Shown: positions 1 to 20,910, counted from the first letter of the stretch. The stretch is 32,000 nt of DNA from Candidatus Saccharimonadota bacterium (GCA_020160975.1 JAIUPJ010000001.1:330001-362000), one strand, 5' to 3'. Notes: generated by a model not told the origin, from the sequence alone. Made by a program: numbers and translations.

Positions 1-33
1 ACGAGATGCTCTAGCCAACTGAGCTAATCACCC
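1..33 (-). tRNA. tRNA, 5' half only (cut by window start); isotype undetermined
   Basis: Reverse complement reads GGGTGAT-TA-GCTC-AGTTGGCTA-GAGC-A-TCTCG: acceptor 5' strand, D-arm and the start of the anticodon stem. Confidence 0.7.
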
Positions 34-69
34 ACAATGATATAAGACTAAATTATTAAGATACTTTTT

Positions 70-194
70 CTCTGGGCTCGACCCACCTTCGGCGGGCCCG
101 CGATTTCACGATTGAAAGCATAGGTTTTATCGGAAAGTCGCCTTGCGAACTGCTACCAGCAGTTCTCACTCTAGCCAACTGAGCTAAGCGCCCA
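70..194 (-). ncRNA. Candidate chimeric element copy A: tRNA 5'-half look-alike fused to a conserved 69-nt core
   Basis: The reverse complement starts GGGCGCTTAGCTCAGTTGGCTAGAG, which resembles an acceptor strand plus D-arm. It then runs into the core at 102-170, shared with 20820-20888. There is no anticodon arm and no complementary 3' acceptor strand. Strand and ends are not established. Confidence 0.4.
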
Positions 195-211
195 ATGTGG
201 GCTGGAAGATT

Positions 212-248
212 TGGTGGAGTAGCAACGGATTTTCACCCGAGCTACCCC
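212..248 (-). other. tRNA-Ala-like acceptor/T-arm minihelix ending in CCA (tRNA remnant or minihelix RNA)
   Basis: Reverse complement is GGGGTAG-CTC-GGGTGAAAATCC-GTTG-CTACTCC-ACCA. It has a 7-bp acceptor stem with a G3:T70 wobble, discriminator A and an encoded CCA. D and anticodon arms are absent. Confidence 0.45.
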
Positions 249-447
249 ATAGTGGGAAGGTACTGTCCCTGAGGCACAGGGACATCGGCGACACGTCGCC
301 TCCTTCGCTCGCTCACGAAAAGATAGAACTACATTTTCGTTTCACTCGCTGCGCCAAACCCTTTTTGCTTTGCAAAAAACGGGTTTGAGGCACTGGGATT
401 CCCCAGAATATTTGTCCCACCACCCCAGGGTGGTGCGGCAAATATTC

Positions 448-524
448 TGGTGGAGGCACAGGGACTCAAACCCTGGACCCCCTGCTTGCAAAGCAGGTGC
501 TCTAATCAACTGAGCTATGCCCCC
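448..524 (-). tRNA. tRNA-Ala (anticodon UGC), CCA encoded
   Basis: Reverse complement is GGGGGCA TA GCTC AGTTGATTA GAGC A CCTGC TTTGCAA GCAGG GGGTC CAGGG TTTGAGT CCCTG TGCCTCC ACCA. The cloverleaf is complete and G3:U70 is present. Confidence 0.95.
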
Positions 525-559: not shown

Positions 560-588
560 ATTCTACCCTATTACATGAGCTCTGACAA
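560..588 (-). promoter_or_regulatory. Putative sigma70-type promoter for the tRNA-Ala array
   Basis: Minus strand reads TTGTCA (583-588), a 17-nt spacer, then TAGAAT (560-565), about 35 nt upstream of the tRNA-Ala 5' end. Confidence 0.5.
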
Positions 589-16172: not shown

Positions 16173-16549
16173 TGGTGGAGCTGCCGGGTACTGCCCCCGG
16201 GTCCATAAGGTAACCTGCTATACGTCTACGCACATAGTCCTATTCTGAAATTATCGCAGGCCTGCTCGAAATAGAACAAACATACAGACACTTGCGAGCT
16301 GTGAAAAATTTAAATTACGAATGACACAGCAGCATTCGCTATCGATCCTGCTAAATATGACACACTCTAGCTATAGCAGAAATCTGGCAGAGTGCGGCTT
16401 CGCAACTTAAGCGAAAGCTGGCGCTTTTTGCAATGGAGCAAAAAGCTGTGCAAGACGATTGTTTGCAACTATTGATTCTGATTACGTCAGAGGTCGATGC
16501 GCGGTAATAGCCTGTTAAAGTCCTCATGTCGATAGCGTATTTCAGCCCC
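16173..16549 (-). ncRNA. ssrA: tmRNA (transfer-messenger RNA)
   Basis: The reverse complement starts GGGGCTGAAATACGCTATCGAC and ends CCGGG-GGCAGTA-CCCGG-CAGCTCC-ACCA, giving an acceptor stem GGGGCTG/CAGCTCC with G3:U. The internal sequence AATAGTT-GCAAAC... resembles the E. coli resume region. Confidence 0.9.
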
Positions 16550-20788: not shown

Positions 20789-20910
20789 CCAGCGGCGCGG
20801 TCACGTTCCGCGACCCCCAGATTTCACGATTGAAAGCATAGCTTTCATCGGAAAGTCTGTTTCCGAACTGCCACTGGCAGTTCTCACTACCAACAGCGCG
20901 CTCGTCCCGA
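20789..20910 (-). ncRNA. Candidate chimeric element copy B: tRNA-Pro 5'-half look-alike, 69-nt core and anticodon-loop-like fragments
   Basis: The reverse complement is TCGGGACGAGCGCGCTGTTGGTAG, then the core (20820-20888), then CTGGGGGTCGCGGAACGTGACCGCGCCGCTGGGG. No T-arm or matching 3' acceptor strand is present. It has its own copy of the tRNA-Pro promoter. Confidence 0.4.

Follow-up and report, generated by a model that had tools for sequence, protein, structure and literature searches.

The first few hundred nucleotides (nt) of a 32,000-nt stretch of Candidatus Saccharimonadota DNA, here called the window, raise the question of whether a 37-nt hairpin on the minus strand, at positions 212 to 248, is a leftover of the tRNA genes among which it lies or an RNA gene in its own right. 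The window corresponds to positions 330001-362000 of the source genome (G000), a single contig of 971,550 bp, and the hairpin, hereafter the minihelix, resembles tRNA-Ala's acceptor arm in its G3.U70 wobble pair, its discriminator base A73 and its encoded CCA. We found that it is a conserved, strand-specific, single-copy small-RNA gene that is descended from tRNA-Ala, with genomic linkage to one of two partners, tRNA-Ala or a cell-wall-type operon that includes Fem. On the basis of sequence comparisons, the 37-nt element is very probably a functional small-RNA gene, and we give an about even chance to the more specific proposal that it encodes an anticodon-less alanine acceptor RNA, which would mature like a tRNA, be charged by alanyl-tRNA synthetase (AlaRS) and be used outside decoding, probably by Fem-type transferases.

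Sequence and fold of the minihelix

The minus strand at 212-248 reads exactly as quoted in an earlier note on this DNA, which had drawn attention to the hairpin, and the following parts can be distinguished in it.

212..248, minus strand: minihelix gene, a 37-nt mimic of the tRNA-Ala acceptor arm defined by sequence and fold, with G1 at 248 and A76 at 212
241..248, minus strand: 5' strand of the acceptor-like stem, G1 G2 G3 G4 U5 A6 G7 C8, with G3 at 246
216..223, minus strand: 3' strand of the acceptor-like stem, with the U70 equivalent at 218
226..239, minus strand: distal 5-bp stem with a GAAA tetraloop (loop at 231-234), holding a second invariant step of G:C plus G.U
212..215, minus strand: discriminator A73 and encoded CCA, invariant in all homologues

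Structure prediction with ViennaRNA yields a single hairpin made up of 8 bp (G1-C8 with G26-C33, including G3.U31, which is G3.U70 in tRNA numbering), a bulged U, 5 bp under the GAAA tetraloop and a single-stranded ACCA. Its energy is -20.7 kcal/mol (z = -4.6 versus shuffles), and one dominant fold accounts for 96% of the ensemble. The minihelix shares with tRNAs a 7-bp acceptor stem, a discriminator base and a 3' CCA, and it has the features of a minihelix-Ala, namely, a continuous stack (here 13 bp with one bulge), a loop and a single-stranded NCCA. It does not form a cloverleaf with D, anticodon and T arms. The earlier note's description of the inner hairpin as T-arm-like did not hold, for this hairpin is a 5-bp stem capped by a GNRA tetraloop; a 7-nt T-loop of the T54-Psi55-C56 type is absent, the loop being GAAA here and UUCG, UUAC, UUUU or GAAA in relatives. 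Neither ARAGORN nor Rfam calls a tRNA at 212-248, and no other Rfam family matches these positions, even at E<=10; Rfam 15 holds no matching family. The open reading frames (ORFs) that overlap the site are mechanical only and do not exceed 63 aa.

Hairpins of this general kind are common, with 342 instances of a 7-bp hairpin followed by NCCA in the source genome versus 251-282 in shuffled genomes. A stricter descriptor demanding G1, G2, G3.U70, A73 and CCA is expected, by our own arithmetic, about 0.3-1.3 times per genome, and a second hairpin with these features occurs at G000:C1 404862-404904 on the plus strand, which is about the chance expectation. The single hairpin sequence of this genome is not by itself beyond chance, and it is its conservation in relatives that makes the minihelix real.

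Conservation and synteny in the genus

For an unbiased sample, 30 tRNA-Ala(UGC) loci of the genus were retrieved through the tRNA and the neighboring ORF, independently of the hairpin. At 28 of these loci, tRNA-Ala and the tRNA that follows it (Ile or Val) have between them a hairpin of 36-37 nt built on one common design, and the species are well diverged, as the neighboring ORF is only 69-78% identical in DNA across the loci. The shared design consists of GGGG, three variable pairs, a usually noncanonical position, a distal stem of 5-6 bp, a tetraloop, a 3' strand ending in CUCC and then ACCA. The spacer from tRNA-Ala to the minihelix measures 3-130 nt in the relatives (199 nt in the source genome), and usually 3-40 nt separate the minihelix from the next tRNA. 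Public records include spacers of only 3 nt to either flanking tRNA, and the minihelix is therefore self-contained. In the source genome, it keeps the same context, following tRNA-Ala(UGC) in an Ala/Ile/Val cluster that has been widened by two insertions.

A covariance model built from nine sequences (R1) gives exactly one match in each of 39 of the 104 genus genomes and no intermediate scores; covariance-model matches at about 22 bits trace to coding sequence or to the 3' portion of genuine tRNA-Ala genes. The anticodon arm of tRNA-Ala(UGC) is found in 41 of the 104 genomes, the other 63 assemblies lacking the whole locus, so that the minihelix is present in 39/41 genomes with an assembled tRNA-Ala(UGC) and in 0/63 of the others, always as a single copy. 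The minihelix of the source genome is the sole match there (43.9 bits, E 4e-8), a score that is partly by construction, its sequence being among the nine. Conservation of the stem in related genomes, the check that the earlier note had proposed for itself, is thus clearly passed, in 28/30 loci and 39/41 genomes.

Simpler searches do not recover these homologues. BLAST of the spacer, the minihelix and the element region against 40 relatives matched only a repeat element of about 90 nt and never the minihelix, and the exact pattern of the source acceptor stem has no second copy in 103 genus genomes; both missed the homologues because the hairpin is too short and its stem covaries. A first reading of the site as tRNA-fragment debris, made with its surroundings full of such fragments in view, was overturned by the synteny comparison.

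Covariation and invariant positions

The stem shows extensive compensatory change. Both-sided changes occur in 7 of 14 pairs among 9 distinct sequences and in 8 of 14 pairs among 15; in the latter set, 91.9% of cells are paired, versus 39-51% with the 3' partner slid. Among 29 distinct sequences, there are 59 double-change cells versus 18 +- 4 in shuffles. The source stem itself differs from that of most relatives by compensatory changes at pairs 6 and 7. In addition, pair 8 is noncanonical in 20 of the 29 variants.

Against this turnover, G1:C72, G2:C71, G3.U70, G4:C69, A73 and CCA are invariant in the sets of 9, 15 and 29 distinct homologues, an invariance that in the wider sets is partly imposed by the search pattern, descriptor or model, a point that counts against the alanine-acceptor reading proposed below; the synteny set is unbiased in this respect, and G3.U70 is invariant in that pattern-free set too. 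The distal step of G:C plus G.U is likewise invariant in this subfamily. G3.U70, A73, G1:C72, G2:C71 and G4:C69 make up the AlaRS identity set, and the earlier note's reading of the hairpin as possibly chargeable is supported in that the conserved positions coincide with the tRNA-Ala acceptor identity set plus the encoded CCA, which is what a chargeable minihelix would need.

The tRNA-Ala(UGC) genes at the same loci behave in parallel, with GGGG and CUCC-ACCA fixed and pairs 5-7 free, as in the minihelix. Yet the tRNA-Ala and the minihelix of one genome never share pairs 5-7, and for this reason gene conversion by the adjacent gene does not explain the conservation. Judging from these substitution patterns, the acceptor constraints on the minihelix resemble those on tRNA-Ala but act on it independently. 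Its acceptor stem in the source genome matches real tRNA-Ala acceptor stems of other Saccharibacteria (e.g., G193), and it did therefore descend from a tRNA-Ala.

This descent is the part that stands of the earlier note's suggestion that the hairpin might be no more than what deletion has left of a second tRNA-Ala gene: the origin is ancient, and what followed is not recent decay, the element having been kept by selection across the genus and in several families. The view that it is a decaying, functionless remnant of such a gene could appeal to the many tRNA fragments around it in the source genome and to the same stem match, but is contradicted by its retention in 39 of 41 genus genomes in spite of the divergence of the neighboring ORF, by the compensatory changes and by the constant length of 36-37 nt. 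Furthermore, the nearest public relative of the source minihelix (L155) has the arrangement tRNA-Ala, 95 nt, minihelix, 14 nt, tRNA-Val; relative to it, the source genome gained insertions on both flanks, between which the minihelix stayed intact. Decay is hence a very improbable account.

The transcribed strand can also be deduced from the alignment, as the two G.U pairs would be C-A mismatches on the opposite strand, and this fixes the strand of the minihelix; the opposite strand folds worse in every one of the 29 variants. The acceptor pairing is kept in the minimum-free-energy fold with 30 nt of flank on either side in 29/29 variants, and a U precedes G1 (position -1) in 27/29. As a G+C-rich hairpin, the element could be suspected of being an intrinsic terminator or attenuator, and in one genus clade a T7 run does begin 5 nt past the stem. 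However, a T-run of at least 5 within 14 nt downstream is present in only 2 of the 29 variants, the source genome has no T-run after 212 and gives nothing in a terminator scan, and in many genomes tRNA genes start within a few bases downstream, which leaves this explanation with a negligible probability.

Distribution outside the genus

Beyond the genus, the minihelix was detected in 7-8 of 151 genomes of an order sample (8/151 with a second model, R2), distributed over several Saccharibacteria families; the unpublished genome G136 is included in the order counts only and in no alignment or model. None was found outside the order in a phylum-wide sample of about 144 other Patescibacteria. Among the matches listed in a scan of all species genomes with an IUPAC pattern, convincing members come only from entries labeled Candidatus Saccharibacteria, TM7, Saccharimonadales or unclassified Patescibacteria, and they include oral taxa 350 and 352; the listed matches outside Saccharibacteria are G+C-rich chance matches, and the scan offers no basis for claiming absence elsewhere.

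Stand-alone copies also exist. The copy in G247 is followed by a textbook terminator with A-tract, hairpin and T-tract, which the terminator scan missed, as its T-run pairs with the A-run in the stem; a scan for consensus promoters found none directly upstream of the stand-alone copies. These copies bear on the idea that the minihelix is a processing or stability element of the tRNA operon, that is, an RNase P or 3'-end signal or a protective structure that is never charged. Such a role would fit its usual place, at a distance of 3-130 nt from tRNA-Ala on one side and of 3-40 nt from the following tRNA on the other; the U at -1 and the encoded CCA suit RNase P recognition as generally understood, and tRNA-like punctuation is known elsewhere, e.g., in the t-elements of plant mitochondria. 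It would not account for the occurrence of copies outside tRNA operons, of which one has a terminator to itself and some are encoded on the other strand from the adjoining operon. Neither RNase P nor 3' processing needs G2:C71, G3.U70 or G4:C69, and a U70-to-C change, which would strengthen the helix, never occurs, while pairs 5-7 turn over freely. Moreover, two genus genomes (G042 and G047) process the same tRNA cluster without a minihelix. We regard a purely processing role as unlikely.

Linkage to a murF-like/Fem operon in other families

Each of the four copies outside the tRNA-Ala(UGC)/Ile/Val cluster (G188, G025, G247 and G120) adjoins genes for an alpha/beta hydrolase and for a ligase of murF-like type. 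The genes that come next in G188 and G120 are those for a DegT-type aminotransferase and for a protein of the FemAB family (135-147 bits); in G247 the contig end falls within the DegT gene, and in G025 a D-Ala-D-Ala ligase follows instead. We then examined the murF-like protein across the order sample, where orthologues are present in 27/151 genomes, using a neutral descriptor that asks for G1:C72, G2:C71, G3.U70, at least 6 of 7 pairs and NCCA and does not require G4:C69 or A73. An Ala-type acceptor mini-RNA lies no more than 700 nt upstream of the murF-like ligase in 12 of the 27 genomes, versus about 1.5 expected by chance (our own arithmetic), and two more lie within 1.6 kb, one at 1.4 kb (G163) and one beyond an inserted ORF (G247). 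All operon-linked RNAs possess G4:C69 and A73. They adopt two shapes, one being the 35-37-nt hairpin and the other a form of 59-63 nt whose acceptor stem encloses three small hairpins. It follows that what is conserved across the family is the alanine-type acceptor end alone, with the distal portion varying freely. The longer form is seen in the order relatives L262, L264, L265, L267, L268 and L272, where it has a 7-bp acceptor stem and no 7-nt anticodon loop and adjoins the murF-like ligase on either strand.

Often the mini-RNA shares the strand of the murF-like gene and precedes it by 46-97 nt, a position that could suit regulation. This brings up the alternative of a protein-binding mimic or regulator, i.e., a decoy, sink or sensor, charged or not, for AlaRS, EF-Tu, a Fem-type enzyme or an acceptor-end toxin, rather than a stoichiometric donor. 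The conserved positions are indeed the protein-recognition positions of tRNA-Ala, and AlaRS explains neither the noncanonical pair 8 (20/29) nor the second invariant distal G.U. On the other side, in several genomes the mini-RNA is on the strand opposite the operon or a terminator stands in between, and it can hence not be a cis leader; AlaRS and Fem are the only candidate partners, and the distal part changes shape freely, from one hairpin to three, across families. We consider a mimic or regulator quite unlikely.

A candidate alanine acceptor RNA

On the strength of the tRNA-like acceptor end, the following course can be proposed for the minihelix as an alanine acceptor. It would be cotranscribed with tRNA-Ala(UGC), its precursor would be cut by RNase P at G1, in keeping with the U at -1 in 27/29 variants, and its 3' end would be trimmed to the encoded CCA. 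Alanylation through G3.U70 and A73 would then fall to the only AlaRS, an enzyme without the C-Ala domain that binds the elbow. As it has neither anticodon arm nor elbow, the minihelix cannot decode, and the charged form would therefore act outside the ribosome, most likely by donating alanine to Fem-family aminoacyl-tRNA transferases, which is the least certain step.

The enzymes of the source genome lend themselves to such a scheme. The C-Ala (DHHA1) domain of AlaRS binds the tRNA elbow in other bacteria. The sole AlaRS of the source genome (632 aa; G000:C1 776750-778648, L250:1489-3387) has a catalytic domain and an editing (tRNA_SAD) domain; the protein stops just past the tRNA_SAD editing motif and carries no C-terminal C-Ala/DHHA1 domain, so that recognition in this organism may rest on the acceptor stem alone. 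Close to a Mur ligase, the genome also has two ORFs of the Fem family (334 and 349 aa), which score 101-109 bits against Pfam FemAB; inside one of them, an MprF-type aminoacyl-lipid synthase domain is retrieved at 21.9 bits, below threshold. In vitro, a coupled AlaRS-FemX assay worked with minihelices of tRNA-Ala, with a microhelix and with the bare acceptor duplex (PMC2175331), and FemX reads G1:C72 and G2:C71 (PMC2655667, PMC2175331). We judge alanylation of the minihelix in vivo to be somewhat more probable than its absence. Its use as an alanine donor for Fem enzymes, which draws on the operon linkage in other families and on the precedent of PMC2175331, is proposed tentatively. The full picture, in which a natural minihelix-Ala would be charged through the acceptor-stem "operational code" alone and would supply Fem-type cell-wall transferases as a dedicated alanine carrier that the ribosome does not see, is likewise a possibility to which we assign less than an even chance.

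Several observations weigh against this proposal. In G042 and G047, the minihelix is lacking and tRNA-Ile starts 8 nt after tRNA-Ala, and most families of the order have no detectable copy (8/151 sampled genomes with model R2). Fem-family ORFs are present in 5/5 complete genus genomes tested, including G042 and G047; since these two keep Fem without a minihelix, the minihelix is dispensable and the presence of Fem does not track it. The source genome has no orthologue of the murF-like/Fem operon, its own Fem ORFs are only 23-25% identical to the operon-linked Fem, and the NCBIfam model nearest to them, a FemX alanyltransferase, is matched at 53-85 bits with a cutoff of 500. With respect to expression, no promoter-like site was found directly upstream of the minihelix in the source genome by the promoter scan, and a very strong hairpin-rich insert of 199 nt separates it from tRNA-Ala there. 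Finally, RNase P and AlaRS are expected to act less well on a hairpin that has neither T-loop nor elbow than on a tRNA.

Comparison with known systems

The closest counterparts are the synthetic minihelix-Ala and microhelix-Ala, which are AlaRS substrates (Francklyn and Schimmel 1989, ref. 110 of PMC9976931), together with the minihelices used with FemX, which accepts Ala-minihelix in vitro (PMC2175331). The element described here resembles the synthetic minihelix-Ala in being a single hairpin of about 35-37 nt in which an acceptor stem is stacked on a second short stem, with ACCA, G3.U70 and A73. The synthetic molecules are laboratory constructs cut from a tRNA and retain the T-loop, whereas this one is genome encoded, conserved and tetraloop capped and often has a noncanonical pair at position 8, and its charging is predicted only.

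Transfer-messenger RNA (tmRNA) offers a second comparison. Its tRNA-like domain has a tRNA-Ala acceptor stem with G3.U70 and ACCA, is matured by RNase P, is alanylated by AlaRS and does not decode (PMC3985003). Unlike the minihelix, tmRNA keeps a T-arm and a large mRNA-like domain and works on the ribosome with SmpB. The source genome has a normal one-piece tmRNA at 16173-16549 of the window, the acceptor stem of which differs from that of the minihelix in pairs 5-7. The minihelix is not itself a tmRNA, there being no tRNA-like domain joined to an mRNA-like tag region at its site and a complete tmRNA elsewhere.

In terms of the proposed function, the nearest analogy is Staphylococcus aureus, which splits its tRNA-Gly isoacceptors between the ribosome and the Fem enzymes (PMC7826273). 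Its nonproteinogenic tRNA-Gly are dedicated carriers that feed FemX/A/B and serve the cell wall and not the ribosome, the same logic as that proposed for the minihelix. They are full cloverleafs with an anticodon, kept off the ribosome by weakened EF-Tu binding, whereas the minihelix dispenses with the decoding half and the amino acid would be alanine. An extreme reduction of another kind is seen in the armless mitochondrial tRNAs of enoplean nematodes, which are reduced to about 40-45 nt (cited in PMC7609411); these retain the anticodon arm and continue to decode, and it is the other half that the minihelix retains.

The plant mitochondrial t-elements and mascRNA (Rfam RF01684) are likewise small and tRNA-like and are cleaved by enzymes of tRNA processing. 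Their fold remains similar to a cloverleaf, and no aminoacylation identity set defines them; RF01684 gives no match to the minihelix and only a weak match to the real tRNA-Ala. A full-text search of open-access papers did not find a natural minihelix or tRNA-like RNA in Saccharibacteria or Patescibacteria or in connection with FemX, and in reviews on tRNA identity and on noncanonical natural tRNAs, minihelices figure as constructs only or are absent.

Minihelix-Ala is the textbook laboratory model for charging set by the acceptor stem alone and for an origin of tRNA from such hairpins, and an RNA of this type has so far been known only as a laboratory construct. A genome-encoded hairpin under selection with exactly that identity set would show that cells use such a molecule today and, if the proposal is correct, it would be the first natural aminoacyl carrier RNA made only of the acceptor half of a tRNA. 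If charged, it would provide a very clean split of protein synthesis from tRNA-dependent cell-wall or other transfer, since the carrier cannot enter decoding. The minihelix would also be a new, unannotated RNA gene for Saccharibacteria, including the human oral TM7 lineages (oral taxa 350 and 352), some of which are cultivable with hosts.

Neighboring sequences

The minus-strand order around the minihelix is 16S rRNA, ORFs, tRNA-Ala(UGC), spacer, minihelix, a tRNA fragment with a repeat element, tRNA-Val(UAC), tRNA-Ile(GAU), an ORF and 23S rRNA. The neighbors within the window are as follows.

448..524, minus strand: tRNA-Ala(UGC), the upstream neighbor in the same orientation and conserved synteny partner
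560..588, minus strand: promoter-like site upstream of tRNA-Ala with 10/12 consensus matches, from the promoter scan
249..447, minus strand: lineage-specific, hairpin-rich insert of 199 nt between tRNA-Ala and the minihelix, made of tRNA-Ala fragments
70..194, minus strand: lineage-specific insert between the minihelix and tRNA-Val, composed of a tRNA 5' fragment and a three-hairpin repeat element of about 90 nt (copy A)
1..33, minus strand: 5' part of tRNA-Val(UAC), the downstream neighbor, with tRNA-Ile(GAU) next, outside the window

The promoter-like site, read from 588 to 560, probably starts a transcript that would take in the minihelix as well, and between the two the minus strand gave no terminator-like site in the terminator scan. 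The distance from 16S to 23S rRNA is about 3.5 kb, with the ORFs and the Ala/Val/Ile tRNAs in between. The tRNA order is Ala-Val-Ile in G000, G019, G115 and L155 and Ala-Ile-Val in most of the genus (window 1-524; L001). The gap between the minihelix and copy A, which the earlier note put at 17 nt, comes to 17-18 nt up to the tRNA-like 5' end, depending on the element start that is chosen.

Copies of the three-hairpin element occur at 70-194 and 20802-20888 of the window and at G000:C1 329670-329772, 811950-812040 and 812869-812975. It is also present in the relatives L010-L018, L027 and L028 and occurs widely in both genus and order; its long middle helix clearly covaries. The element is always nested in partial tRNA gene copies beside an intact gene, in one of two layouts: it either follows tRNA position ~24 together with a duplicated promoter or sits in the T-loop of a 3' fragment, after a CCA-containing terminator hairpin and an inverted copy of the T-arm. 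The spacer at 249-447 has the T-loop layout, with inverted and direct copies of the tRNA-Ala T-stem region that pair as a hairpin; next come an insert of about 70 nt, which may be a degenerate copy of the repeat element, and a 13-nt copy of tRNA-Ala positions ~60-72. In lineages with long spacers, about 15 nt directly 5' of the minihelix are conserved, C/U rich and end in AUAU or ACUAU before G1 (window 249-265; L155:1825-1841; L091:922-938; L046:1750-1765). This motif could be a processing leader or a promoter remnant.

Long hairpins after tRNA genes pair the 3' CCA of the tRNA with a downstream UGG (window 403-450; L001:1300-1351; G000:C1 812789-812835). Those after tRNA-Ile and tRNA-Leu combine an A-tract with a T-tract and look like bidirectional terminators, and the one after tRNA-Ala has no T-run.
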